Origin: Amoebidium appalachense
Taxonomy: Eukaryota > Protista > Ichthyosporea
DNA: 64,000 bases
NCBI GenBank assembly: GCA_963693365.1
Contig: CAVNZM010000007.1
Coordinates: 5,825,962 to 5,889,961 of the forward strand
Direction of reading: 5' to 3'
Shown: positions 474 through 64,000 of the stretch, in pieces
How the letters are laid out: each line of letters begins with the position of its first letter
Numbering within the stretch: position 1 is the first letter of the stretch
Translations under genes and position numbers: made by a program
Notes under the pieces: generated by a model
Told to the model about the DNA's origin: nothing
The model's input: only the letters and a program-made list of their open reading frames with translations
Databases searched by the model: none

Positions 474-1857
474 GAGATCATGCTGCCACCGTGCTTCTGG
501 AAGAGGTCGACATAAGAGTCCATGCGGCCGGCAGTGGTGGGACCAAACGAGCTGTGGAAAGAGTTCAGTCAGGTGTGAGCACACGGAGACCTCTGACTGG
601 AGTGCGATGGGAGGGTAGGGTAGAACATGGCATCAGTTTGTTGCATATCTTCGAGATTTTGGGCTGTTTGTGCAAGAAGAGATTCTGTCGACACGGTGGA
701 TGAGTAGTGAATGGAATGCACTGTGCAACATCCAAGTGCCCCCCCCCCCCCCCCCCCCCTTCCCCCCCCCCCCCCCCCCCCCCCCCCCTCTCACACACAC
801 ACACACACAAAACAAAAACAATTAATATACACAAACAAAGGGCCCGACGTGTCCCCTTGTGATCGTGCAGGAGTGTGTGTATGTGTATGGGACACTGTGG
901 TGAATGTACGTGTCTTATCCTTTTCCATTTCTTTAGTTCGTTCTCTTCTAGTGATTTGTTCAGCTGAGTGTGTGCTTGTGCAATTGTGCGCGCCTGATCG
1001 TATATGGGTGTACGTCCGGGTGTCTTTGGGGGGAAGAGAGAGGGAGGGAGGGAAGCAGGGGGGGGGGGGGGGGATTTAGCATACCCAGAGGCCATGCCGG
1101 TGGGGGTCTTTGCTGGGCCAGCATAGTAGACAATGTGGTCCTTGATGTACTGCAGAGAGATATGGTGTGTCAGCAAGCACAGCAATATGCACTGGGGAGG
1201 AGGGGAGGGGCGGGGGAGGGGGGAGGGGGGAGGTAAAGGGTTTGAGGGGAAGAATGGAGTCTGTGTGTGCAGTTGCATTCAATTCCCATGTGTGGGAAGG
1301 GAAAGATAGACACTAGGACATGTTCACAGATTCAACTAGCAGAATATAGAATATGAAAGACTGTGGGGAAAAGGTGCGGTGGTGGGTGAACGAATGGATG
1401 AGTGCGTGGGTGTGTACATTCAAACCCTTTTGAAAAAAAGGTATGATGATTGTGGGTGGGTGGGTGGGTGGGTGCACTTGCGATTCGTGTATGCGTGTGT
1501 GCAAGTGTGCGCGTATGTACATCCAAATCGGTTTGGAAGACGTGTGGTGGTGATTGTGCTGTGCTGGTGGGTGGATATAATTTTTCAATTTATGCCTGTG
1601 TGTCTCGCCAGGCATGTTTGGGAAAACGAATGGTGGTTATGGGTGGGTGCGTTTTTCGATTCGTGTTTTCATGTCTGTCTGCGCGTGGCGTGTAAGTAAA
1701 ATTTCTGCATATACCTGGGGCAGGCCCTGGCCGGCATCGATCCTCTCCTTGAGCTTGGCGTGGGCAATGTCACGTGCCACCACCAGGGTACCGCTCAGCG
1801 ACAGGCGGGTCTTGATCGGGTACTGGCTCAGCTGCCTGCTCACAACAAAAACATCAG

Positions 1858-1898
<41 letters not shown>

Positions 1899-1901
1899 TG
1901 T

Positions 1902-1941
<40 letters not shown>

Positions 1942-2005
1942 GTTATTATGCAGCACACACAAGTAGATCGCAATGACGAAAAACCGTGTAGGTATGCAAA
2001 GAGAG

Positions 2006-2044
<39 letters not shown>

Positions 2045-2459
2045 GAAGAATCATAGCAAAATTGGGGGGAGGGGGGCCACTGCTGAAACAATGACATTCA
2101 GCTTGCTCGGATGTGTTTGTGGTTCCGCACTCACTGCAAAGACGCCATCCTTGTTTGGATGAGGAGGAAGGGTATGCTCATGGGATTGAAGGAAAATAAT
2201 TATGTTCGTTATTGATACAGACTACTACATATTTGTTGGCAAGTGTGTGCGCACAAGCACAAAGTGTATCAATGGCAAAGCACACGGATGCGCAATTATT
2301 GTAAGCAGGTGAGTGTGAGTGTGTGTGTCTGTGTGGGCGTGAGACCGTGTGTCCAGTTGTGCGTGGGCATGAGGTGTGCATGTGTGCATGTGTGCATGTT
2401 GTGTGTGTCTGTGTCTGTGTGTGTTGGGGGGGAGGAGCCGTAGGGAATGTGTGTTGGCG

Positions 2460-2508
<49 letters not shown>

Positions 2509-2846
2509 GGACTTGAGGATGTCTGCCATGGGCTGGTTGAGGTTCACATTCACCACGTCACTGCCAAGGTCAGACTGCAGAACACACACCCCAGTGTCAG
2601 CCACAACACTTACTGAAAAAATTTCCTTCATTCATTTGTTTACACACACATGCGCATGCATATATGAAAAATGTAAACAAACAAACAGTGCTCACATACA
2701 GAAACTAGCACATGCCTTCACTCCTATCCCTTCCACCCCAAAGTCTCGCAAAGCGCTCTATTCGTCATCCCCATATCCCCCCCCCCCCCCCCCCCCCCCC
2801 CACCACCACCACACACTCCCGTCATTCCCTTTCTCCCCACCCCCAA

Positions 2847-2877
<31 letters not shown>

Positions 2878-3004
2878 GACACACACCTCCGTGATCTCGG
2901 GCAGGTACTTTGCTGGGTTTGTCTCGAGGGCCTCAATGAACACACCTTCCTTGGTCATCTTGCCCAGAGCCTGACGATCGGCACTGCAAGACACACCAAT
3001 GCCG

Positions 3005-3062
<58 letters not shown>

Positions 3063-3429
3063 ACGCGCAAACGTGGAAAAGGCCAGAGGTTAGCAAGAGA
3101 GGCCGGGAGGGGTGAAGGTATGACAATTTGGGGGGGAGAGGGGGGGAAGGGCTTTGAATGCGTCGTAAAGTACGAAGGAAACATGAACAACGAATAACAC
3201 GATGCAGAGTGCAAACCATACATAAAGGGTATGCATAATAATCAGAGCCCATCCTGGGGGAGGGCACGTACAGGGCAGGAGGCGCCGTGGCGGGGCAGAC
3301 GGATGACTCTGACATCGTGGGCAAAGTACTTGCCGCCAAACTGCGCACCAATGCCGGATTTCTGTAGCCCAGCAGGTGTCAGAGTCACAAAGCTACATGA
3401 AAAAGAATGATGTGGCCCAGAGATCAAAG

Positions 3430-3486
<57 letters not shown>

Positions 3487-4452
3487 CGAAACAAACAAAA
3501 AATCCTCAGGGCCACAAGCCAGGGAAGCCTCAGCTAGCTACACAAGCACAAGGGCCACGTGGTGTTATTTCTGAATGGCAAATTTTCTGGAAATACCCAA
3601 ACGTAAATTTCGGGGAATATCCCACCTGGCACAGCTTGTGAACCTGCTATACTATCACACGGACCACATGGTGATATTTCTAAAATATATCCAAACGTGA
3701 ATTTCAGGGAATATCTCACCTAGCACAGCTTGTGGACCTACTATACTATCACACGGACCACATGGTGATATTTCTTAAATATAAATAAACCTGATTTTCA
3801 GGAAATATCTCACCTGGCACAGCTTGTGAACCTGCTCCTCGAGCTCAATGTCCCTGAAAGCCCGGCCGAGGTTGTTGCCTGTGCACACAGTGCCCAAGTG
3901 TCAGCGGAATACCAATAGCATATACAAAAAAAACAAAAAAAACAAATACACACAGACATAGACAAGAACACGGTCACATACAAACACACACGCAAACACA
4001 CAACACCACACCTACGGTGCTCTCCTGGTTACGTGCAATCCTTTGCACACGGCGTAAAGGACATATCGCACATGCAAAAACACACACACACAAAAGAACA
4101 CAAAGATCACACTGAAGCATGCACAGTGCCCTCCTCGAAAAAAGATTCATGGAAACATTCACATGTTGCATAAATGACAAAGCCCCCCCCCCCCCCCCCC
4201 CCTCCCCCTGTCCCCACACACACACACACACACAACCCACCGGTAGTTGGCAGGTCATCATAGTATCTGGCCGAGCCCAGCTTGACGGTCTTCAAGTTCT
4301 GCTCGGCAGACATGCCACCCACCACGATGCTCAGGTGGTAGGGGGGGCAGGCAGACGTGCCCAGAGACTTGATCTGTGCACCACCCCAACCTCTGTGTTA
4401 GTCGTTTTTAAGAGTACATTTGCACTCTGTCGTTTCTTGCTTACTGAAGAAT

Positions 4453-4494
<42 letters not shown>

Positions 4495-4790
4495 CCGCGC
4501 CCCCGGAAGCGCAGAAAACCATCACATGCCCGTACAAAGCAGCTCCCCCCCCCCCCCCCCCCCCCCCTCCCCCTTCCCCAGCGCACACACACATTAAAAT
4601 CACCGAATCCACAAACGCTCACAGGCACACACTACTTCAACTTCGGTATCACAGATTGCCCAACACCCAACAAAGCCCCAATGCCCTGTGTACGCCTGCC
4701 TGTATGTGTGTGTGCATAGGGGTTAAAAGTGGGGGTGGGCGGAGAAAGAGAGCACGACACACGCACACACACACACACACAGAGAAGCGG

Positions 4791-4823
<33 letters not shown>

Positions 4824-4941
4824 GGGGAGAGAGAGAGAGGGGGGGGGGGGGGGGGGGGGAGGGGGGGAGAGAAAGAGAAAGAGAAAGGGAAAGTGTGTGT
4901 GTGTGTGTGTGTGTGCGAACGCACATGCATGTGAGCTCTAA

Positions 4942-5007
<66 letters not shown>

Positions 5008-5504
5008 AAGAGAGCGCAAGGCACACCTTCTCGTCCAGGAACTTCATGAGGGATGTGGGGTTGAGCAGGGCCTTGGTCTGCTGGAACAGGAACGTCTTGT
5101 TGGCTGACCCACCGCCCTTGGCCATGAACAGGAACTTGTACTCGCTGCCTGCTGTCCCGAAAATGTCGATCTGCGCACACATCAAGAAACGATTAATTAA
5201 CAAAGAAGAAAAGGCGGAGAGATCGGGAAGGAAGAAAAAGGGGAAGCAAGGGGAAGGGGGAGGGGGGATGGAGAGGGTATGGAAGGGGCTAAGGATGCTG
5301 GGTGATTGGTAGGTGTTATTGGGAAGCACGTTTATTCTAGTGCATTCACACAGCAGATAGTGGGCTTGTGTGTGTGTGTGTGGGGAGGGGGGGGTACCCC
5401 CCCCCCCCCACACACACCGTAACCACCACCAACAAAAACTATCCCGTGAACTGCAAGACTACGAGATCTAGCTTCACGTCAACACTAGGCCTTATAAGCC
5501 AACA

Positions 5505-5541
<37 letters not shown>

Positions 5542-8500
5542 AAAATAAAAAATATACACCACCACCACCATCAAAAAAACTGCCTCTACCCCTCTCACCT
5601 GCAAGGCTTAGTTTTACGTTTCTACTACGCGGCTTGTATGTGCCAATATACCCCCCCCCCCCCCCCCCCCCAAAACCCCCCGCCTGTGCCCTCCCACCCT
5701 TTCCACCCAGCAAATAACCCAACAGTAACTATGACTGACACCAAACCACCAGCACAGCAGGTAGCCCCCCCCCCCCACCCCTCCCCCTCTTCCCCAACTA
5801 TTCAACTATTGGCAGCAACAATGACTGAAAGCAAACCACCAGCACAGCGCACACGTACCTGGGCCGGCAGGTTGCAGCCAGTGTTCTTCTCCGTGTACAT
5901 GTCCAGAGGAGCCACCTGTGTGAAATGCATCAAGTACATTCAGAATATAGCTCCTAAGGGGCCCCAGTATTCTCGTTAAGTGTACTCAGACAAATCATTT
6001 ACTGCTTTCAGCAAAAAAACACTTATCATTCGCAGTGCCCCCCCCCCCCCCCCCCCCCCCCCCCACACACCACTTTCATCGTTCAGGTATCCCAGAGCAG
6101 CCTCCCGCAACCCTCTGCATAAAAAACAGTGTGTGTGTGTTGTGTCTATCCTCGAAGGTATGGGTACATGTTATTTTGCATGTGCGTGAGGAAGTTTACC
6201 GAGTGTAATAAAAATAAAAGGGGAGACAGGGGAGAGGGGCCTGGGGGGAGGGGGGAGGGGGGAGGAGAGAGAGAAAGTGTGTGTGTGTGTGTGCATGACC
6301 TGAGAGTAGCGTAGGTTCCTCTCCGTGTAAGCACGGAACACACCCTTGGACAGATGCTCCTCGTCGTTGCCGTCCGTCCACACGTTCATGCCCCTCTTGC
6401 CCATCACAATGGCTGCATGCACACGTACACAGTTAGCAAACACAACAGTATCCCTCCGCGTACTAGCAAGAATGGAGAAGTGGAAGAGGTAAGGAAGGCA
6501 AGTACGCAAGGAAGGAGGACAGGTGGGGGAAGGTGTGTGGAGAAAGAGAGGAAGGAGATGAGCGAGAGAGGAGAAGGAGAAGGAGAAGGAGAAGGTGGTG
6601 GTGGTGGTGGTGGTTGGGGGGGGGGGGGGGGGGGGGGGGGGGGAGAGAGAAAAAGAGAGAGCGAGAGAGACAGGGAGAATCCACCACACTCTTCAAGCAC
6701 TGTTTCATACAGACCTTCCCCCCCCCCCCCCCCCTACCCCTCCATCCACCCCCCTCCCCCCGGGTGTCCTCCCCTCCCTCCACCTCCAACCTTCCCATAC
6801 TGCACCCAACCTCCCCTCCCCTCCCCCCCCCCCCCCCCAAAAAAAAAAACTAAACTCAAACACCTGAAGCATCTACACTTTTCACATAAACCCCAAAGGC
6901 CGCAGTATGGAATATGAATTTAATAAAACAGTAAAAAAGACCAATGTTTCACGTCAAAGGGCTCAATAAATAATGTGCTTACCAGTGCCGGTGTCCTGGC
7001 AACCGGGCAGCACCATGCCGGCAGCAATGTTTGCGTTCTTCAACAGCTCAAGGGCAACGAACCTGTCATGAAGAGGGTGTTTTGGGTAAGCATGACGTGG
7101 TAAGTAGTGACATATTACTCTTTTTGGACAAAGGCACTTCAAACCCCCGGGTAAGTGTGCTGTCAAATATGGTCACCTGTCACTGTTTATGGGCAAAGGC
7201 AGCCCCCCCTCCCCTCTCCCCCCATAGCACACACATACTCTTTCATATCATTTCCTTACCCATTCTACTCGTGCTTGCTCGATGTGGAAGAACTGGGTTT
7301 ACAAAACGTAGTGAGGCATCACTGATACTTAGCACAAAAAAATACATAAACCCGTCCCTATAAGTGGAAAGCATACCGGTCGTTCGTGGATGCCTCAGGG
7401 TCCTTGAGGATGTTAGACAGCTGCTGAAGGTGGCCGGGGCGCAGCAGATGCGCAATGTCGATCATGGCTTGGTTGGCCAGGACGGTCAGCGCCTGGGGGT
7501 CAACCTGGAGAACACGGAATGAGAACGCCTTTGTCTTTTGTCACATTATCATCTACCTGGCAAAAAAAAAAAAACAAAAAAAAAAAAAAACGACTGATGT
7601 GTGCCTATGTTAACGTGCTTGGAGTCCCAGAAGGTGAACCTAGGGACTTTTCATCATTACCCCCCCTAAACCGTATGCCCAACAGAAACCCACAACCACA
7701 TGCTGAAGCCCAAACTCAGCCCACAAGCTAACCGGCCCATACCTGAAGAATCTCCCTCCCGTTGACGTTGACGGTGGAGACATAGTCGCTGGTAATCTTC
7801 TTCCAGGGGGTGTCGACCTTCCGGGCCGGGTCATGAGTGAACAGGTCCGTGTAGGCAAACTGCGGCCCTGCGGCGGCATAGTGGCGCTTCTGCAGACCAG
7901 CTGTGGGGAAAGCAGCAATGGGTGAGAAAAAGAGTGCCGGGGAAGAAGCGGGGGAACACAGAGAGGGAGAGAAAGAAGGAGGGGGGGGGGGGGGGGGGGG
8001 GGGAGAGAGAGAGAGAGAGAGAGGGCGGGAAGGGGGGCGAGAGGGGGGTTGAGGGAGGGGGAGGGGGGGGGGGGGGGAGGGAGGGGAGAGAGAGAGCGAG
8101 AGAGCGAGAGAGCGAGAGAGAGAGAAAGAGAGAGTTTTCGGCATGCACGTGTTTGTATGTAAGAACGATGAATGTGGCTGTTCCTTCAAAGAGCATGTGG
8201 TCGTGAGAGCACTTCACATAAAAGAGTAGAAAAGTTAGTGCTGGCCCACGTATCCCTCCCAGCAGGATTGCAGGGTTTTAGAGAGCAATGGGGAATATCA
8301 GCTGCCGGCCTATTGTCTCAAGTCTTTATCCCAGATTCTAAACCTGAATGATGCCTTTGCCCAGAATTGGTTTTTTCGCACGCTAATATAACAGAACGGA
8401 ACTCTTCACAAAAAGCCAAAAAACGCAGTTGTCCACAGCTCAACCTATCAATTATCCTCTTTAGTCACGGGCTCCTGCATTCCATTTCTAGCTCTGCGCT

Positions 8501-8597
8501 GCTGAAGAAACGAACCTGCAGCAGCCACGCGAGCAGGCAGAGATGCGGGGGCTGAAGCCATAGCGCCCTTTACCACAGCGGACGCGTTGGCCAACAT
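474..8597 (-). CDS. Class I (Fe-S) fumarate hydratase, probable mitochondrial precursor; 15 exons in window, 3' end continues past position 1
   Basis: Exons (minus) with GT-AG ends and consistent phases: 8516-8597, 7743-7900, 7377-7504, 6983-7062, 6300-6412, 5859-5915, 5027-5170, 4241-4373, 3814-3878, 3272-3361, 2887-3006, 2513-2574, 1715-1835, 1085-1149, 474-551. FumA/FumB-type motifs: [94 protein letters not shown]. The N-terminus ([27 protein letters not shown]...QKRHYA) is Ala/Arg-rich and acid-free, like a mitochondrial presequence. Confidence 0.95.
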
Positions 8598-11056: not shown

Positions 11057-23654
<12,598 letters not shown>

Positions 23655-24679: not shown

Positions 24680-25534
24680 CTACACTCTCGCAAACAGTTC
24701 TGCGTCGGTGGCCGGGACGTTGTCGCCAAACAGGACACTGCCGGGCCGCACCAGGTCCAGACGGGCGCTGGGCACGTCCAGCGTGGCGTAGGAGCTCGCA
24801 GCGTGCAGCAGCAGCGCGCTGCGGTCCAGGCCGCCCTCCCGCACGAGCCACTTGCTTTCCTTGACGAACCGCGCCAGCCCGCCCACCACGGCAGCCTTGT
24901 CCTCGGTGGGGAAGTGCGTCATGATGCCGGCCACGGTCAGCCCGGGCAGCTCGAGCATCTCCAGCGCGTCGGCCTGGCCCTCCTCGCTCCGCACATCCAG
25001 CCACCTCTGCATGCCGCCCGACGACAGGCCCACGTGCACAGCCATGGTGCGGTTGTGTCGCTGCGCCGCGGCCGACACCTGCTGGGCTCCCTCCAGGCTG
25101 GCCACAAGCTCGTCCACACCGAGGCCCAGCGCAGCTGCAGACTCGGCCTCGCCGCCAGTGGCTGGCCGAAGCCGAATGATGCGCCCCGTGAAGTTGCCTG
25201 CACGCACAGCGCGGGCCTCCGCGTTGGTGGCCACCCCCACACAGATGATGTCTGCGTCGATGATGGCCGGCAGCATGGCTTCGATGCCACGCCCGTAGGC
25301 GTTGTGTTTGAGGGCCGGGCACACCACCGGGCCATTGTCGCCAAGAATGTCTTTGAGCGTGTCTATGTTCTGTGCCAGTGCGGCCACGTTTGGCTGCAGA
25401 CAAGTGGCGGCCGAGGGAGCGGAGGGGGAGGAGGAAGCAGTGGGTGCAGCAAAGGCGGCAGTGGCGGCCAAAACAAGGCCAAGGACGGCCGGCAAGAGGG
25501 TGCCGGCGGGCCTGGATGCACTGTAGCGGGCCAT
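24680..25534 (-). CDS. Secreted alanine-racemase-family (Bsr-like) protein, N-terminal PLP TIM-barrel only, copy 1 (284 aa)
   Basis: Intronless and GC-rich. Signal peptide MARYSASRPAGTLLPAVLGLVLAATAAFA. PLP-lysine motif VCPALKHNAYGRG, then CVGVATNAEARAVR, VHVGLSSGGMQR, GIMTHFP, LHAASSYATL and LDLVRPGSVLFGD, which follow the Bsr/Alr barrel as I recall it. Stops 12 aa after the GD. Confidence 0.88.
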   Translation of the reverse strand: MARYSASRPAGTLLPAVLGLVLAATAAFAAPTASSSPSAPSAATCLQPNVAALAQNIDTLKDILGDNGPVVCPALKHNAYGRGIEAMLPAIIDADIICVGVATNAEARAVRAGNFTGRIIRLRPATGGEAESAAALGLGVDELVASLEGAQQVSAAAQRHNRTMAVHVGLSSGGMQRWLDVRSEEGQADALEMLELPGLTVAGIMTHFPTEDKAAVVGGLARFVKESKWLVREGGLDRSALLLHAASSYATLDVPSARLDLVRPGSVLFGDNVPATDAELFARV

Positions 25535-26765: not shown

Positions 26766-27614
26766 ATGGCCCGCTACAGTGCATCCAGGCCCGCCGGCAC
26801 CCTCCTTCCCGCCGTCCTTGGCCTTGTTTTGGCCGCCACTACAGTTTTTGCTGCACCCACTGCATCCTCATCTCCCTCTGTTCCCTCGGGCGCCACTTGC
26901 CTGCAGCCCAACGTGACCGCACCGGCACAGAACATTGACACGCTCAAAGACATTCTTGGCGACAATGGCCCGGTGGTGTGCCCGGCCCTCAAACACAACG
27001 CCTACGGCCGTGGCGTCGAAGCCATGCTGCCGGCCATCATCGGCGCAGACATCACCTGTGTGGGGGTGGCCACCAACACAGAGGCCCGCGCTGTGCGTGC
27101 CGGCAACTTTACTGGGCGCATCATTCGGCTTCAGCCGGCCACTGGCGGTGAGGTCGAGTCTGCGCTGGGCCTCGGTGTGGACGAGCTTGTGGCCAGCCTG
27201 GAGGGAGCCCAGCAGGTGTCGGCCGCGGCGCAGCAACACAACCGCACCATGGCTGTGCACGTGGGCCTGTCGTCGGGCGGCATGCAGAGGTGGCTGGATG
27301 TGCGGAGCGAGGAGGGCCGGGCCGATGCGCTGGAGATGCTCGAGCTGCCCGGGCTGACCGTGGCCGGCATCATGACGCACTTCCCCACCGAGGACAAGGC
27401 TGCCGTGGTGGGCGGGCTGGCGCGGTTCGTCAAGGACAGCAAGTGGCTCGTGCGGGAGGGCGGCCTGGACCGCAGCGCACTGCTGCTGCACGCTGCGAGC
27501 TCCTACGCCACGCTGGACGTGCCCAGCGCCCGGCTGGATCTGGTGCGGCCTGGCAGTGTCCTGTTTGGCGACAACGTGCTGGCCACCGACGCAGAGCTGT
27601 TTGTGAGAGTGTAG
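26766..27614 (+). CDS. Secreted alanine-racemase-family (Bsr-like) protein, N-terminal domain only, copy 2 (282 aa)
   Basis: Near-identical inverted paralog of 24680-25534, with the same motifs, signal peptide and stop position. A TATA-like CTATATAA lies at ~26623. Confidence 0.88.
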   Translation: MARYSASRPAGTLLPAVLGLVLAATTVFAAPTASSSPSVPSGATCLQPNVTAPAQNIDTLKDILGDNGPVVCPALKHNAYGRGVEAMLPAIIGADITCVGVATNTEARAVRAGNFTGRIIRLQPATGGEVESALGLGVDELVASLEGAQQVSAAAQQHNRTMAVHVGLSSGGMQRWLDVRSEEGRADALEMLELPGLTVAGIMTHFPTEDKAAVVGGLARFVKDSKWLVREGGLDRSALLLHAASSYATLDVPSARLDLVRPGSVLFGDNVLATDAELFVRV

Positions 27615-32381: not shown

Positions 32382-33676
32382 ATGCATCTTCGCACGTGTT
32401 TTGTGGCCGTTCTTCTCAGCTTTTCGCCTGTCGCTCTTGCGCGACCCAAGAAGGAAGTCAGCACGGAGAAGTTGGCAAGATGGGACAAAACCGCACGCCT
32501 AACAGTCTATGAGGATGAGAACTGCACGCAGATAGTAAATGGAGAGGATGGAAACCCCTACAAGGTAAGAGGACGAAGCGAAGAAGAAGGGTATGACTAC
32601 ATCTAATAGACCTGCAAGTGGCGAGGATTTAGTGTGATAGTCTCGAGCTCGTTGAGATACTCTGAAGGGCATCACACACGCAACTCACACACCTCTGTCT
32701 ACCATGCATGCAAAAAACCGACACGTACTCACGAAAAAGTACTTTGAGTCATAATAAAGCTGCAAAAGAGACGCCGTCCGCCAGGATCATAAGCACGCTG
32801 TGTGCTGGCCCAACAGATCTAGTTCAGCATACGATGAACGGCCGTCATAGCCTTTGATTACTTGCGTTTCAAATCACTTACATACTTAACAGTTTAAGAA
32901 CTGAAGATCGAACTCAGGATTTACTCGGGCTTTCCTGAATACCAAAGTGTAATTACTATGCAAACACCCACGAGCGAGTTCTCACAGATCACAAACACAC
33001 CTTGTGAAACCCCACAGATTGAGTTCCAAGCGCAAGATGACGCTTGCCTCAAGCTACCCAACACCTCTGTTTACGTCAACCCTTTCATCAAGCGCTACGG
33101 TGGGCCTACCCTCCACCTTGCACAAGACGATCAGTGCGAGTATGATGCCGTGGAAAAACATGAGGAATCGTACATGCCGGTCCCATATGGCACGTGTGTA
33201 GGTCCCATACTCGACACCAAGCTCTTCGCTGTTTACACCCACAAAGGTATGTGTGCTGTGCTATTTCAGCCTTTCTGCTTCCCCTACCCACAACTACCCG
33301 CTCATGCACCGACACTCATACACACAAACCTTTGCACACACAAATGCTTAAGACCTAAGGTCTTTAACCCCTCTGCTCCCTATTCCCCCCCCCCCCCCCC
33401 CCCCCCCCCCCTTTCTCCTCCTCCCCCCCCTCCCCCTAGTGCCCTTCCAGCTCTTCTTCCCCGCGTTCAGTTGTATACGTGGGTTTCCATGGCATCTCGG
33501 GCAAAAGAGTAATCTTCAAATTATCCCCCCCCCTCATCCCCCACCCCCTCCCCCTGCCCTCCTCGGTGCATTTTTCTCTTTGTGGAACCCGCCGTATTCA
33601 CAACAGACTAACCCCTGTCTACCTTCTCTCCCAACTATCCATTCGTGCACAAGCAAACAGGCGCGCGCGCACGCAC

Positions 33677-41590: not shown

Positions 41591-42468
41591 AGGGGGGAGG
41601 GGGGTCCCTCGACTCCCACTGGCACGAAGGCCACTAACGAAATATACATTCGATGACTGTGTAAACACTGTGCTGCAGTGCACTCGAAATAACTCGAAAA
41701 TAAATGAATCGTCGCAAACCCCTTATAAATAAAAAAAACACAGATAAAATTAATTTTACATCATCGGACACTGAAAAACAAGCATACCGTGGTGTGTCCC
41801 ATCGCCCAAAAAAAGAAAAGAAAAAGAAAAAAAAAAGAAAAGAAATAAATAAATAAAAACAAGCAGCTTGAAAAGGAAGAGCTGCCTTCGAAATCATTAT
41901 GCAGCTGTGTTACACTAAGTTGGCAGCGCTGGGAGCCAGTTATCCGATTTTGCAAATTCACGCAAATGACCTCGTGGGAGTGCAGCTAGTCTCAGACGTG
42001 CCACCAACCATTTAACTGACCACGTCCCTTGACACTCTTCCTTTTTTTTTTTTTTTTTTTTTTTTTTTCCCCCTCTTTACAGGACACCCGCTGGTTCTCA
42101 CATGGCACCCACTTGGTGGGCACAACTCAGCCGGAGACTAACAAAAAATACGGTCACATGTACACATGAGAAAAACAGCTTCTAAATATATACTATACCA
42201 CAGCATGACGGACAGATGGCTGTCTAAAAATGTGAGCACAGCCCACCTTCCACCTTAAAAAAGTTTGCACCCTTACCAGCTTTCCTGGGCACTACTATTT
42301 ATTTATATGAGCCTCGGATATAACTTCGGCACTACGTGCCAGCAACAGTTTTTTTCTAGCTCTCCGAGTTTGCCTTGAAGACACATTACGGAATATCGAT
42401 AATTCCGCGGCCATCGACCACTGGAGCCCGGTTCAGTAGGTACTGCGGCCCGGCCCGGCCCGATTTGT

Positions 42469-43800
42469 TTAGTTTTTCTCTGTGCCAGCATTATTCGCCG
42501 ATTGGGGGTTAGCTGTGATGGCGGGCGAGTCGGTTGGGATTTTTTTGGGTTGTTCCGTGGAGAGGCGGGCATTGGAACGGAAAATTGGGCCGCGCGCTTT
42601 GCGGGAGAGGGAGCGAACTGAACGCCTGCTAGCAGAGGCCGAGGGGGCTGGCGCTGGGGGTGCCGGGGCTGGCTCTGGGGAAAAGGAATTGGAACGGAAA
42701 AGACGGGGCTTGCGAGAGAGGGAGCGAACTGAACGCCTGCTAGCAGAGGCCGAGGGGGCTGGCGCTGGGGGTGCCGGGGCTGGCTCTGGGGAAAAGGAAT
42801 TGGAACGGAAAAGACGGGGCTTGCGAGAGAGGGAGCGAACTGAACGCCTGCTAGCAGAGGCCGAGGGGGCTGGTGCTGGGGGTGCCGGGGCTGGCTCTGG
42901 GGAAAAGGAATTGGAACGGAAAAGACGGGGCTTGCGAGAGAGGGAGCGAACTGAACGCCTGCTAGCAGAGGCCGAGGGGGCTGGCGCTGGGGGTGCCGGG
43001 GCTGGCTCTGGGGAAAAGGAATTGGAACGGAAAAGACGGGGCTTGCGCGAGAGCGAGCGAACTGAACGCCTCTTACCAGAGTCCGGGGTAGGAGGGTTAG
43101 CTGGTGTGATTGCCGGTGTGTTTTTGGGGGGCGCGGACGGTGCGGGGGCGGCGACGCGGGAATTGGAATGGAAACTAGGGCCACGCACTTTGCGAGAAAG
43201 TGTTTCCTCCGAGCGAACTGAACGCCTGCTGCCCGAGGGGGCTGGTGTCGGTGCGGGGGGTGGGACGTAGTTATTGGAACGGAAAAGACGGGGCTTGCGC
43301 GATAACGATCGAACTGAACGCCTCTTACCAGCTTCCGGATTAGGAGGGTTTTCTGGTGTAATTGCCGGTGTGTTTACGCTGGATGCGGGTTTGGGTGCAG
43401 GGGCTGCGACGTGGGAATTCGAACGGAAATTCGGCCCACGAGCTTTGCGGGAAAATATTGTCTCCTGCGAGCGAACTGAACGCCTGCCAGAGCCCTGAGG
43501 GGGGCTGCTGGTGGTTGCTGTGCCCCCGTTGGTTGTCGGCTTGGGTGAAGTTTCCGTAGTGAAGGCATTGGCACGGAATATTGGGCCACGTGCAACCCTC
43601 TTCAGCTTGTAATCCACCTCGCCTTCCCCATGAGAAACCATGGCGGGTGTGTTGGAGTCCGAATTTCCTAACATGCCCTCTGCCGACGCACTGCTCACGG
43701 AGGAACTTGCCATGAGCAGAATTACGCAAGAGGAAAGAACGGCGAAGAAAAAGCCACGACGTGGTGAACCCACCGTGTGGGTTTTCATTTCGAGTCCCAT
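42469..43800 (-). CDS. Secreted repetitive polyprotein; putative prohormone/pheromone-like peptide precursor (443 aa, intronless)
   Basis: N-terminal hydrophobic signal (FFFAVLSSCVILLMASSSVSSASA). Nine peptide units start with GPxF[RH][SA]N or LFRSN. Each is preceded by RVAR/RKAR/RKPR/RKVR, and all but the last are followed by (K)RRSVR. Four units are near-identical 111-bp (37-aa) tandem repeats at ~42600-43070. Confidence 0.8.
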   Translation of the reverse strand: MGLEMKTHTVGSPRRGFFFAVLSSCVILLMASSSVSSASAEGMLGNSDSNTPAMVSHGEGEVDYKLKRVARGPIFRANAFTTETSPKPTTNGGTATTSSPPQGSGRRSVRSQETIFSRKARGPNFRSNSHVAAPAPKPASSVNTPAITPENPPNPEAGKRRSVRSLSRKPRLFRSNNYVPPPAPTPAPSGSRRSVRSEETLSRKVRGPSFHSNSRVAAPAPSAPPKNTPAITPANPPTPDSGKRRSVRSLSRKPRLFRSNSFSPEPAPAPPAPAPSASASRRSVRSLSRKPRLFRSNSFSPEPAPAPPAPAPSASASRRSVRSLSRKPRLFRSNSFSPEPAPAPPAPAPSASASRRSVRSLSRKPRLFRSNSFSPEPAPAPPAPAPSASASRRSVRSLSRKARGPIFRSNARLSTEQPKKIPTDSPAITANPQSANNAGTEKN

Positions 43801-44847
43801 CTTCTGTAATAGTTAGCGAAGAAAAACTGACAAAGCTGTGTTTCCTGACTGAATTGCTCACTATGTGCCTAGTTGTGTTGGAGATGTGGTCCGGCTACTA
43901 TCGATGTCGTCCGTGCCAAATCTGACATTAGATATGATCAATTACAAAGCACGTGTAGCACACAAGAGCATAACGCCTAAGGGAACCATGCACACGGGCC
44001 ACACAAGTAGTGTGAGATGTGAATGGCTGTAAGGGCGCTTCTTATAAAAGAACACATGCTTTGCTATGTCACCGTCTATGTTGCCAGGAGCGCATGTCAG
44101 TGTCACGGCCGCGGCAACTAAACGCCCAATCAGATCCCTTAGCTGCTATTGAGATATGAATAACCATATATAGTTTTGCTTACCAGCAGTTGATTGGTGT
44201 TGGGTGTGTGGGAGATTCACTAGGAATTATTTGGAATTTGAGATGGTATGCAGCTTAGGGCTTGAACTTTTATCGCCAGAAGCTAAGGAAAAGCAGGCCG
44301 GGGGAGGAATCATGTGCACCTAAAGTGGGTGTTCAAAACAAAGAAAAAAAGGGGTTGGGCTGAGAAGTATTTGATATCTGCAGCGAACTCACGCTTGTAA
44401 TTAGCAGGCGGACGCCGTACAGGTTGGGCCCACCACTCCCAGTGTACTTGACCGTGAATTCAGAATAAATTGTTCACAAAATACCTCCGGGAGCACCCCC
44501 TAGCTCGCCCCAACCTCTCCGAAAAGATCCATATTCATTACGTCCATCCCCATCTTATTTTTTTATGGGGGGGAAATTTCCTCTTATGGAATAAAAATGG
44601 AGATGAGACATGTCCAGGAAGGGTGACCTGTAGTCCTCCTACTCCTCACAAGTTTCATGATGATAATTTCAAGCCCTGTCCAAGGAAGATAAAAACTTTT
44701 GAACTGATAACGAAACCCACAACGTTTCTCAACAAGCTCGCTCGACGGTTAACCAATTAGATGAGTTCATTTTGTTCATCTATAATTGACGAGGCGGTCC
44801 TTGCATTCCACGGCCGGGCATTCCACATTCCTTGGGCAGGAGTGTGC

Positions 44848-44899
44848 CATACAAGCCTGAGCCCATGCACACGTGTGTGCATGGGCTCAGGCTTGTATG
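44848..44899. repeat. Perfect 25-bp inverted repeat (hairpin) with 2-nt spacer
   Basis: CATACAAGCCTGAGCCCATGCACAC-GT-GTGTGCATGGGCTCAGGCTTGTATG. Confidence 0.9.
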
Positions 44900-45462
44900 T
44901 ACACATGTCATGGAGTACGTGGTGTCGCCTGCCATTTGCAGCCAACATGGGATCGTTTGTCGTTGTAAACATCGAAATTGTGCCCCTGCACCATGGGCCA
45001 GATATGTCTGTGAGCCTGCAGGCCATGGAGCCTTCAAGGGCTAAAAATAAGATTCGTATGTAAAAAACTATTAGGAATGTCCGAGGCATAATTCCTCCAC
45101 CACGTTTCTCGCGTACCGGCTATTGTATTTTTTATTCTGTATACTGCCGTCCGACGGCCCTCCAATTTTTGTCGAGCGTACGATCGGCACAATGCCTCTT
45201 TGTATCACTTCAATGCTTTTTGATTATCCGAGGAGCTGCCAGGAGCTGCTCAGTACGTGACCACTCCCGAGCATTCCGCAACTTTTTCGGATTTGACATC
45301 TTGCAACATCATCCATGCATATGGCAACGAAACATTGCGTCAGGCCAACTATATCACGTGGTTCACGTGCACCATCAAAAAGTTGATCACTGATGATACA
45401 TATCAAAAGTGTTACATGTGTTATTCACTGTGGAACAAGCTCAACTCCTGAAATCATTGTGA

Positions 45463-46906: not shown

Positions 46907-47587
46907 ATGATGGCGCATCCCATTTCACCCATCACCACCCTCCGTCCCTACCTCTGCTTCCCAGGCACTTGCGAAGAAGTTATGCACTTCTACGCGGGCG
47001 TGTTTGGGTCCAACCCTGTCAAGATGACACGGTTCAAAGACGGACCGGATCAGTGCAAAACACAATACGGAAAGGAAAACGGAAACAAAATTATGCATTG
47101 CACCTTCGAGGCTGGAAAGCTGTTTTTCATGGCCGCGGACGACGCGTGCGGTTAGGAGAAAACGGAACACGGAGAAGCGATGGTCGAAGGAAAGGTTGTG
47201 GAAAAGAAGAAGAGAAAGGTGGAAGGGGAGGGTGAGGTGGTGCATACAGAAAACGTGGAAACTATCGAGTCTCTCAGAGAACCAGAACATGACTCGGAGC
47301 AAAAGAAACATTCGGAGGCAGAGGGGGAGGTGAAAAATGGTGGTGGGGGAAAACAGGTGCAGACAGCGCTCGCGCTCGATTTCAAAGACACCAACGGCGC
47401 GGCAACAATTTTCAACGCGCTTCCGTCCGGAGGGGGGAAAATGTTGGTGGAGTTTAGAGAGGAGCGGTGGGGGGACATGTTTGGTATGGTGCGGGATAGG
47501 TTTGGGGTGGAGTGGATGGTTACGTCACGTGATCACCTGCCGTGGGGGTTTGTGGGTGACAGGTCGGAGCCTGCAGGGCTGCCTTGA
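46907..47587 (+). CDS. PhnB/VOC (glyoxalase-superfamily) protein interrupted by an in-frame TAG at 47153-47155 (pseudogene, small intron, readthrough or sequence error)
   Basis: The N-half (LRPYLCFPGTCEEVMHFYAGVFG...KIMHCTFEAGKLFFMAADD) and C-half (IFNALPSGGGKMLVEFREERWGDMFGMVRDRFGVEWMV) are PhnB-type. Both halves are in the same frame, joined by an E/K-rich insertion. Confidence 0.8.
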
Positions 47588-48601: not shown

Positions 48602-50106
48602 AGGGGGGGGGGGGCAAGCTCGGGGAGAACATGTACAGAAAAGCGGTGCGTGCGCGGGTGTGTGTGTGTGTGTGTGTGTGTGTTGTGCACGTGTGTTTGT
48701 TTTTCTCTCTGTGCGCGCACGTGTGTGTGTGTGTGGGTTTGGGGGGAGGGAGGGGAGGGAAGAGAGAGGGGGGGTGAGGGGGGGTAAGGGGGGGGGGGAA
48801 AGAGAAAGAGAGAAGGATCGAGGGGATGGGGGGGAGGAGAAGGAAGAAAAGAGGGTGGGCCAGGGGAAAAGGGGGGGCAAGAGAAAGAGCTATATTCATT
48901 GGGGGGGGGGGGGGGGGGGGGGGGTCTTGGGATTGCAAAGCGAGAGAAAGTTTGAGGGACAACTCAACCCAATTGTGGAGTGTCACGGGGTAGGATATGG
49001 GGGGTTGAAAGGGGGAGAAAGGGCAAAGCTTAATTCGAACTTGTCCAAACCCCCACTTACTCAACCCATGGCCACCCAATCCCCTCCTTTTTGTAGCACC
49101 ATTAATATTCCCCACTTTTCTTCTCCCTATCCCATTTTGTGTCAACATTATTGCCTTCCGAAGTTCCAACTTCCTGGCATCGAAAGATTCCAGACACAAT
49201 CCTTGGCTAACAGAGGTGTCTCATGACGCTCGGGTGGCCCAAGATCACCGGCATGTTTGGATTTTTATGGATTCAAATTCCAGGATTTTTCATTTTTATA
49301 TTTTATTTTTTTATTACAAGTATCACATGCTGTGCCGGTAGATTATTTGTAGTGGTGTTTGCGCCGAGCACAAATCTTAAAAAGTGAAACGACAAGTCCG
49401 CCTCCCTCGTTTAGGAGTTGGGCTGGAAAACCAGGGCTGCATCCACCAAAAATACACGTTGAATGCCATAAATACCATAATAAGTATGATTTACAAGACA
49501 CATCTCTGTCCACGGACACGCGCATACACAACTTCCCAGGGTTTGGCCGTTGGAAAACAACCACGACTACTCCACTCGTGTGGCAAAAATTTTCAATTTG
49601 AAATTCGCAAAAAGTTAAAATTTTCCATGTCCCCTATTACTGCATGTGCCTAAGTCAAACCATACACCAGCTGATGCACATTTGGAAACCTTCTAGAATC
49701 CCCACTCAGGATTGCGCCAAAACCCTCCCCCCCAAAAAAACCCAACGAAGACAAATAAACAAACAAACGAAAGCAGATAAAAAACCGAAAATATATACCT
49801 CTCGGTATGCAGTAACATATCACCGTGCGCGCCATCAAACAATGGTCTCAATCTAGTCTAAGTGCAACTATGTATAGATACATTAATCGATTGCTCTCTT
49901 CCACACGCATATCGGGGTGTTGTACTATCACCCCGTCACTTTTACCCACTTTAGGCAATTATCCCATTAGTCAAGAGACGCGCCATAGAAGCAAACATAC
50001 GGATCTGAAATGGCAGTTGTCATGTTGCCTTATGATAATTATTCATAACCAGATATGCAACCAACCAATCAAAATGGAGGATGGTCAAGTGATTTGGTCA
50101 CGTGAC

Positions 50107-63788
<13,682 letters not shown>

Positions 63789-64000
63789 CTGGGATATGAC
63801 ACATGTTAGATATATTGTGCAGTTGTCAGTGGGGAGATATATAACAACGTTTTAGTTATGTTGTGCCATGGTTGGTGGGGAGATAGTTGAGCGGCACACC
63901 CTGGGATATGACACGTGTTAGATATATCTTGTGGAGTTGTTAGTGGGGAAATTTATGTTTTACATGATGCTTGACCCCCCCCCCCCCCCCCCACCCACCA

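Follow-up and report, generated by a model that had tools for sequence, protein, structure and literature searches.

The open reading frame at positions 42469-43800 of the minus strand encodes a real orphan KEP-like precursor (P0001, 443 amino acids), which is probably processed. It lies in a 64-kb window, by which we mean the whole stretch of DNA analysed here. A preliminary description of this DNA had proposed a secreted multi-copy precursor, and a precursor that is transcribed and probably secreted was supported by the repeat grammar of the frame, by its signal-peptide-like start, and by contigs of run X1. Cleavage of the protein is likely, and, given cleavage, a signalling role has a probability of a little over one half. 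The complete reading, in which the protein is cut into peptides that serve as extracellular signals by way of a common N-terminal head, falls somewhat short of an even chance.

The frame list and the translation showed an intronless gene. Among the six reading frames of this region it is the only open one, since the remaining five carry 4-15 stops each. The first ATG has an A at position -3, as was also observed in three further genes of the window. The precursor can be divided into the following parts:

43681-43800 (-), predicted signal peptide (residues 1-40), with a basic pair at residues 14-15, a hydrophobic core at residues ~16-31, and a small-residue end
43588-43680 (-), pro-region (residues 41-71, 31 residues) with five acidic residues, closing with a KR pair and the first RxxR site
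43486-43587 (-), predicted peptide 1, Gly-Pro type, with a Thr-rich tail and a C-terminal Gly before RR (amidation signal)
43324-43437 (-), predicted peptide 2, Gly-Pro type, with a long tail and a C-terminal Gly before KRR
43228-43287 (-), predicted peptide 3, Leu type, 20 amino acids
43072-43182 (-), predicted peptide 4, Gly-Pro type, with His replacing Arg in the head, a long tail, and a C-terminal Gly before KRR
42599-43085 (-), 111-bp array with four identical 25-residue peptides of the Leu type (42961-43035, 42850-42924, 42739-42813, and 42628-42702)
42472-42591 (-), predicted peptide 9, Gly-Pro type, C-terminal, without a hydrophobic anchor

The predicted signal peptide is likely to be cut after residue 40. 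The hydropathy peak of the protein falls on residues 17-35 (2.15 over 19 residues), and the five best hydropathy windows all begin at residues 16-21. In the AlphaFold2 model, which was built from a single sequence and has low confidence (mean pLDDT 43), the sole helix spans residues 13-33, with no structure elsewhere. Thus, neither the hydropathy windows nor the model, which has no further helix, revealed a transmembrane segment past the signal peptide.

Nine heads of the form F-[RH]-[SA]-N were located, at residues 75, 125, 173, 210, 257, 294, 331, 368, and 407. An R-[KV]-x-R site stands before all nine, either adjoining the head or two residues ahead of it, and each internal unit ends in one of eight RRSVR motifs. 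The repeat grammar proposed earlier was therefore borne out, and the spacers matched their earlier description as well. Past residue 40, 50 of the 52 arginines are found within the 154 residues of the motif zones and two within the other 249; this concentration indicates that the pattern did not arise by chance. The earlier count of nine FRSN peptides holds for the units; however, units 5-8 are identical in protein, and the distinct peptides therefore number six. These six candidates are 20-38 residues long and have exact predicted termini. The unit tails consist of 45-76% Pro, Ser, Thr, and Ala and are predicted to be disordered in the low-confidence AlphaFold2 model. They had been thought to vary freely, but the comparison revealed two related families, with long tails in units 2, 4, and 9 and short ones in units 3 and 5-8.

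Two tandem repeats were detected in the gene with Tandem Repeats Finder, namely the 111-bp array, with 4.4 copies and 97% matches, and an older 252-bp doublet with 82% matches at 43021-43487. The copies of the array differ at three third-codon positions alone, all of them silent. Recent dosage amplification had been suggested on the basis of this array. The array itself is real; however, tandem slippage explains it equally well, and dosage is one reading of it. No second copy of the repeat-gene region was found within the 64-kb window, and the six frames of the window contained no F[RH][SA]N head elsewhere and one RRSVR outside the precursor, at 33125. Opposite the repeat array lies an antisense frame of 250 amino acids (42518-43270, plus strand) with Glu/Arg/Gly/Ala repeats, which is probably a by-product of the repeats.

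The precursor contains 22 matches to RxxR, none of which corresponds to the strict furin consensus RX[KR]R. Hence, the furin/Kex2-type sites proposed earlier were retained in their minimal form, with RxxR at all nine heads, together with RR/KR pairs (eight, ordinary Kex2 sites), whereas the strict form is absent. In the sites before the nine heads, P1 and P4 are always Arg and P2 is Ala, Pro, or Val, which fits the minimal furin site R-X-X-R. The minimal status of R-X-X-R, as well as the recognition of R-I-P-R by furin, and hence the tolerance of proline at P2, has been described (PMC8999023). Five of the 22 matches are RLFR sequences inside the heads of the Leu type and would represent a competing site, cutting through these heads.

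What separates the Gly-Pro from the Leu type of unit is exactly one X-Pro dipeptide, lying between the site and the head, and Gly-Pro is kept in all four units of its type despite three silent changes. Since Ste13 prefers XP/XA dipeptides (PMC6339444), trimming of the four Gly-Pro units by an enzyme of the Ste13/DPP-IV type would give the same five-residue x-F-R-S-N head as in the five Leu-type units. In addition, G-K/R-R, used as an amidation signal in PMC6313938, closes all three internal units of the Gly-Pro type (3/8 internal units), whereas the five Leu-type units have no amidation Gly. These two points, which the preliminary description had passed over, favour processing of the precursor. 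Each of the two features counts as approximately one evolutionary event, because the units share one ancestor, and an X-Pro or X-Ala pair is possible by chance in a protein in which Pro and Ala make up 28% of the residues. Basic sites alone say little, since convertase consensus sites were present in 756 of 771 secreted proteins of Chlamydomonas (PMC6313938). Kexin-like genes have been reported from yeast, Capsaspora, and Monosiga, lineages that bracket the host; the same source makes no mention of ichthyosporeans (10.1101/802215).

Codon changes between the units were counted as minimum changes. For 18 motif codons, 15.3 silent and 12.7 replacement changes were obtained over all units (ratio 0.32, p 0.003), and 12 silent and 6 replacement changes over units 2-9 (ratio 0.19, p 0.0007); these ratios are biased, as the motif columns were picked as conserved. 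In the tails of units 2 and 4, there were 7 silent and 13 replacement changes (ratio 0.71, p 0.31). The unit comparison and the motif-codon counts supported the earlier suggestion that constraint acts mainly on the basic sites and the N-terminal head. DNA homogenisation may contribute to the conservation of the motifs, because the four RRSV codons are identical at the DNA level in all eight units.

Expression was assessed from runs X1-X3, which come from one sample, none of them recorded as RNA, and which were available as contigs only, without strand. In the fumarase gene of the window, one GT-AG intron is skipped in X1 contigs and two in X2; therefore, both runs hold spliced RNA. Three X1 contigs match the precursor gene and its surroundings:

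43251-43880 (strand.), 630 nt, 0 mismatches or gaps, running from 80 nt ahead of the ATG over the signal peptide and units 1-2 as far as the head of unit 3
42877-43017, no difference, fitting two places of the 111-bp array
42049-42385 (strand.), 337 nt, no difference, downstream of the stop, with no contig bridging to the frame

The last of these is a possible 3' UTR, and an AATAAA signal is located within its span on the minus strand (42298-42303). The donor-like GTAAG at 43328 is read through, unspliced, by the X1 contig; a second splice-donor-like GTAAG, at 43076, lies outside the contig cover. X1 contigs leave gaps at 42386-42876, 43018-43250, and 43881-45400, and such gaps prove nothing; likewise, no X2 or X3 contig was found on the gene, which is no proof of absence. 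A transcript had been named as a check in the preliminary description, and the gene is represented in RNA: contigs of a run that is spliced at the fumarase gene match the 5' half of the gene without a single difference, in one sample in which DNA carry-over may be present.

The window consists of intron-rich eukaryotic DNA full of microsatellites, and includes the following genes and repeats besides that of the precursor:

~1715-8596 (-), multi-exon gene whose product, a class I (Fe-S type) fumarate hydratase, carries a targeting-like peptide at its N-terminus; RNA contigs confirm two introns of the gene
3593-3833, 94-bp tandem repeat of 2.6 copies, in which the end of a fumarase exon and its splice donor are duplicated
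~11712-23654 (+), PTB-like RRM gene with several exons, which resembles animal PTBP1-3 closely (63% to a bird PTBP3, measured on one exon)
13999-14412 and 23154-23456, intronic duplications of 127-134 bp in the PTB-like gene
24683-25534 (-) and 26766-27611 (+), near-identical head-to-head intronless alanine-racemase-like genes
46907-47587 (+), intronless PhnB/VOC-like gene with weak PF06983 and PF00903 matches and a charged low-complexity insertion
~50100-63812 (-), multi-exon gene for the DNA polymerase delta catalytic subunit

The 94-bp repeat could provide the fumarase gene with alternative donors. Both racemase-like genes have a signal-peptide-like start and the N-terminal racemase domain alone (PF01168, E 5.5e-37 for the first), with a stop after ~283 residues; they would encode a secreted truncated racemase-like enzyme in a eukaryote, possibly of bacterial origin. 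The in-frame TAG at 47153-47155 of the VOC-like gene would point to a pseudogene, an assembly error, read-through, or an atypical intron.

A 70-residue exon of DNA polymerase delta was used as a query and matched 2782 proteins. The best among the matches listed, leaving out two animal entries with inflated scores, were P0008 from EukProt (99%), Ichthyophonus hoferi (87%), Creolimax (85%), and Sphaeroforma arctica (83%). Comparison of P0008 with the window gave 14 exon stretches at 70-100%, where the lower identities probably reflect overrun into introns. A tree was developed from 20 rows picked from 120 listed, with P0008 standing in for the window's own spliced gene. On this tree, P0008 was sister to I. 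hoferi (100/99) within a four-row ichthyosporean clade (100/100). The host, described earlier as a probably unicellular eukaryote, is thus an ichthyosporean. A viral origin of the precursor was rejected, as no match in viral contigs was confirmed and the flanks bear host-like microsatellites.

Searches for homologues of the precursor gave no relative. Pfam returned no family at E up to 1, and this includes families of mating factors. A word-indexed search of 5.8 billion clustered proteins with lengths of 243-776 amino acids found no homologue among the best 7995 candidates; two matches with E ~6 were rejected as Pro/Ala linkers of chemotaxis or flagellar proteins. A HMMER search of 1.84 billion representatives yielded one match, P0004 (ENA, 194 amino acids, E 7e-4). 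This protein has a 37-residue repeat period and ~33% identity around the head, resembling the site-plus-head stretch of a Leu-type unit. It has neither a signal-peptide-like start nor a Pro-rich tail, and we took it as a chance match, with the equal period inflating the score. None of the 18 pattern matches in viral contigs and none of the 470 and 192 in metagenome contigs was confirmed, and PDB sequences gave no match. By exact look-up in the protein collection, both start variants of the precursor were absent, as were two racemase frames (one racemase query started upstream of the ATG). Consequently, the peptide "family" assumed earlier found no second member in the protein, viral, metagenome, or PDB searches. 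These empty searches do not prove that the precursor is unique, since the collections are poor in ichthyosporean genomes. A possible likeness of the head to the tethered ligands of protease-activated receptors was dropped as too short to weigh. In the open-access literature, no repeat peptide precursor was found for ichthyosporeans, and the words "peptide" and "pheromone" do not occur in a 2024 review of the group (PMC11286789).

The precursor was compared with the known systems of similar layout. For fungal KEPs, the published criteria are a signal peptide by SignalP, no later transmembrane segment, at least four fragments of two or more residues after cuts at KR/RR, and at least three similar fragments that cover at least 15% of the protein (PMC6339444). 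Of the 12 fragments that result from cutting the precursor at KR/RR, 10 exceed one residue in length. Eight fragments start alike, four are identical, and the repeat span, determined without the FIMO step, is 85%. The precursor thus shares with the KEPs described in that source a signal-peptide-like start, the absence of a later membrane segment, KR/RR-parted repeats over 85%, and more than one motif variant (PMC6339444). Unlike them, it belongs to an ichthyosporean host, not a fungus; in each of its linkers a short basic spacer is flanked by two sites, RR/RRSVR and then RKxR, its X-Pro pair follows the second site and not the dibasic one, and no sequence homology was found (PMC6339444). Directly after KR/RR, XA/XP is absent: Ser-Val follows the RR pairs, and Gly-Pro follows RxxR in 4/9 units. 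With prepro-alpha-factor (MF-alpha1), as it is outlined in the same source, the precursor has in common a predicted signal, a pro-region, tandem peptides, and predicted trimming of the Kex2, Ste13, and Kex1 type; however, it has no KR-EA/DA spacers and no Pfam match, and its peptides are 20-38 amino acids long and Pro-rich, with conservation confined to the head (PMC6339444).

Animal multi-copy proneuropeptides and the proneuropeptide-like proteins of Chlamydomonas, as described in PMC6313938, resemble the precursor with its predicted signal peptide, its lack of a folded domain, its paired basic sites, its several peptides of similar sequence, and the G-K/R-R amidation signals of three units. 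The precursor differs from them in its N-terminal conservation, in its five units without an amidation Gly, and in the lack of homology (PMC6313938). Homology to known neuropeptide families was absent from the Pfam, word-indexed, HMMER, and PDB searches. In typical animal neuropeptides, conservation resides in the amidated C-terminal motif. The phoenixin/SMIM20 and NUCB precursors, found in choanoflagellates and Tunicaraptor, are each a single conserved counterpart of an animal gene, and ichthyosporeans are absent from the text of that study; the likeness consists of convertase-type sites in a precursor from a unicellular relative of animals, whereas P0001 is lineage-restricted and multi-copy (PMC9004410). 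In summary, the architecture of P0001 is already known, and its sequence, double-site linker, convergence of Gly-Pro and Leu units on one head, and host lineage appear to be new.

The following course of events is proposed for the precursor. The predicted signal peptide would be removed, and a convertase of the kexin/furin type would cut each linker twice, at RR/RRSVR and then at RKxR, so that the short basic spacer is discarded. A dipeptidase of the Ste13/DPP-IV type would strip Gly-Pro from four units and then stop, whereupon all nine would begin with x-F-[RH]-[SA]-N. The C-terminal basic residues would be trimmed by a carboxypeptidase, and the three internal peptides of the Gly-Pro type could be amidated, provided that the host has PAM. 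The head would then be the epitope read by a receptor, with the disordered Pro/Ser/Thr tail as a carrier, which may be O-glycosylated. In its strongest form, this scheme describes a secreted multi-copy peptide hormone or pheromone whose processing follows the animal/yeast grammar in full, from convertase and X-Pro dipeptidase to carboxypeptidase and perhaps amidation, and whose two classes of peptide share one N-terminal receptor-binding head; as such it is possible but doubtful. Against the scheme stands a study of the Creolimax secretome, which reports no known animal diffusible-ligand domains, in a search that is blind to domain-less precursors (PMC4739763). A rhodopsin-type GPCR has been reported from the ichthyosporean Pirum gemmata, and its model best matches aminergic or peptide receptors (PMC12716839).

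Several other explanations were considered. It is unlikely, in our estimate, that the protein is cut as predicted but into Pro/Ser/Thr-rich (glyco)peptides of a structural kind that build or coat a wall or an adhesive, with the head as an assembly or cross-linking motif. The composition and predicted disorder of the tails are in line with such a role, tandem expansion suits bulk material, and cell walls are present in ichthyosporeans (PMC11286789). Ustilago Rep1 and yeast Pir offer a parallel of Kex2-type processing of a secreted protein with products that may be structural (PMC6339444, PMC2515848); both are listed as proven Kex2 substrates (PMC2515848), and the Rep1 peptides remain on the hyphae (PMC6339444). 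No sequence likeness of Rep1 or Pir to the precursor was found. Moreover, Rep1 has no Ste13 signature, which the KEP authors take as a pointer to hormones, whereas X-Pro follows the second site in 4/9 units of P0001 (PMC6339444). The predicted peptides also contain no Cys and almost no Tyr and have no predicted amphipathic structure, which argues against structural material. A further explanation, to which we give a rather low probability, is that the protein remains uncut, as a basic mucin- or extensin-like protein, secreted or signal-anchored, in which Arg clusters bind anionic wall polymers or surfaces and the Pro-rich linkers serve as spacers. The excess of Lys and Arg (73) over Asp and Glu (20), the zero count of strict furin sites, and the near-universal presence of basic sites in secreted proteins, as found in Chlamydomonas (PMC6313938), agree with this, and a basic pair ahead of a hydrophobic helix suits a signal anchor as well. 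S-x-E is a secretory kinase motif, and its eight occurrences in the precursor could be sites of such kinases. Set against the anchor is the A-x-A motif ending at residue 40, which conforms to the small-residue rule of signal peptidase. A role of charge would not call for a variable P2 between invariant Arg residues at P1 and P4, for an invariant Phe and Asn behind the site, or for unit types offset by exactly one Gly-Pro.

Release of the peptides against other organisms, either an animal host or microbes, is improbable. Candidalysin from Ece1 and the proline-rich antimicrobial peptides from multi-copy precursors are analogues of such a use. Many ichthyosporeans are found on animals or inside them (PMC11286789), some fungal KEPs give rise to toxic peptides (PMC6339444), and an orphan gene with diversifying tails is, by inference, of a kind common in effectors. 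However, with a net charge of 0 to +2 and neither a hydrophobic nor an amphipathic segment, the predicted mature peptides differ from antimicrobial peptides of the lytic or cationic kind, and the neighbours of the gene (VOC-family, Pol delta, PTB, racemases) include no tailoring genes. It is very improbable that the frame is non-functional, held open by tandem repeats, and represented in the RNA run through incidental transcription or DNA carry-over. The absence of a homologue in the searched collections would be expected for such a frame, as would a codon-likeness to three host genes near zero (-0.04), a GC3 of 0.56, lower than the 0.64-0.88 of the racemase, fumarase, and Pol-delta stretches, and the lack of X2 and X3 contigs, with the reservation made above. 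Nevertheless, all differences in unit length are multiples of three, silent changes are in excess in the motif codons, and a signal-peptide-like N-terminus stands outside the repeats of the sole open frame among six.

Returning to the peptide-signal reading, P0001 represents, if it is cut as predicted, a hormone-precursor-like gene in a group in which none was found described, and the ichthyosporean lineage bears on the question of how peptide signalling arose in animals. With six defined candidate peptides and their exact predicted termini, the proposal is open to testing through peptidomics and with synthetic peptides. Should the products be structural, Kex2-processed repeat proteins would extend beyond fungi, and the gene would give a first handle on the wall or adhesive proteins of ichthyosporeans. 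If the hormone reading is true, multi-copy peptidergic signalling would exist in non-animal holozoans, with ligands whose sequences the gene already gives and which are ready for synthesis.
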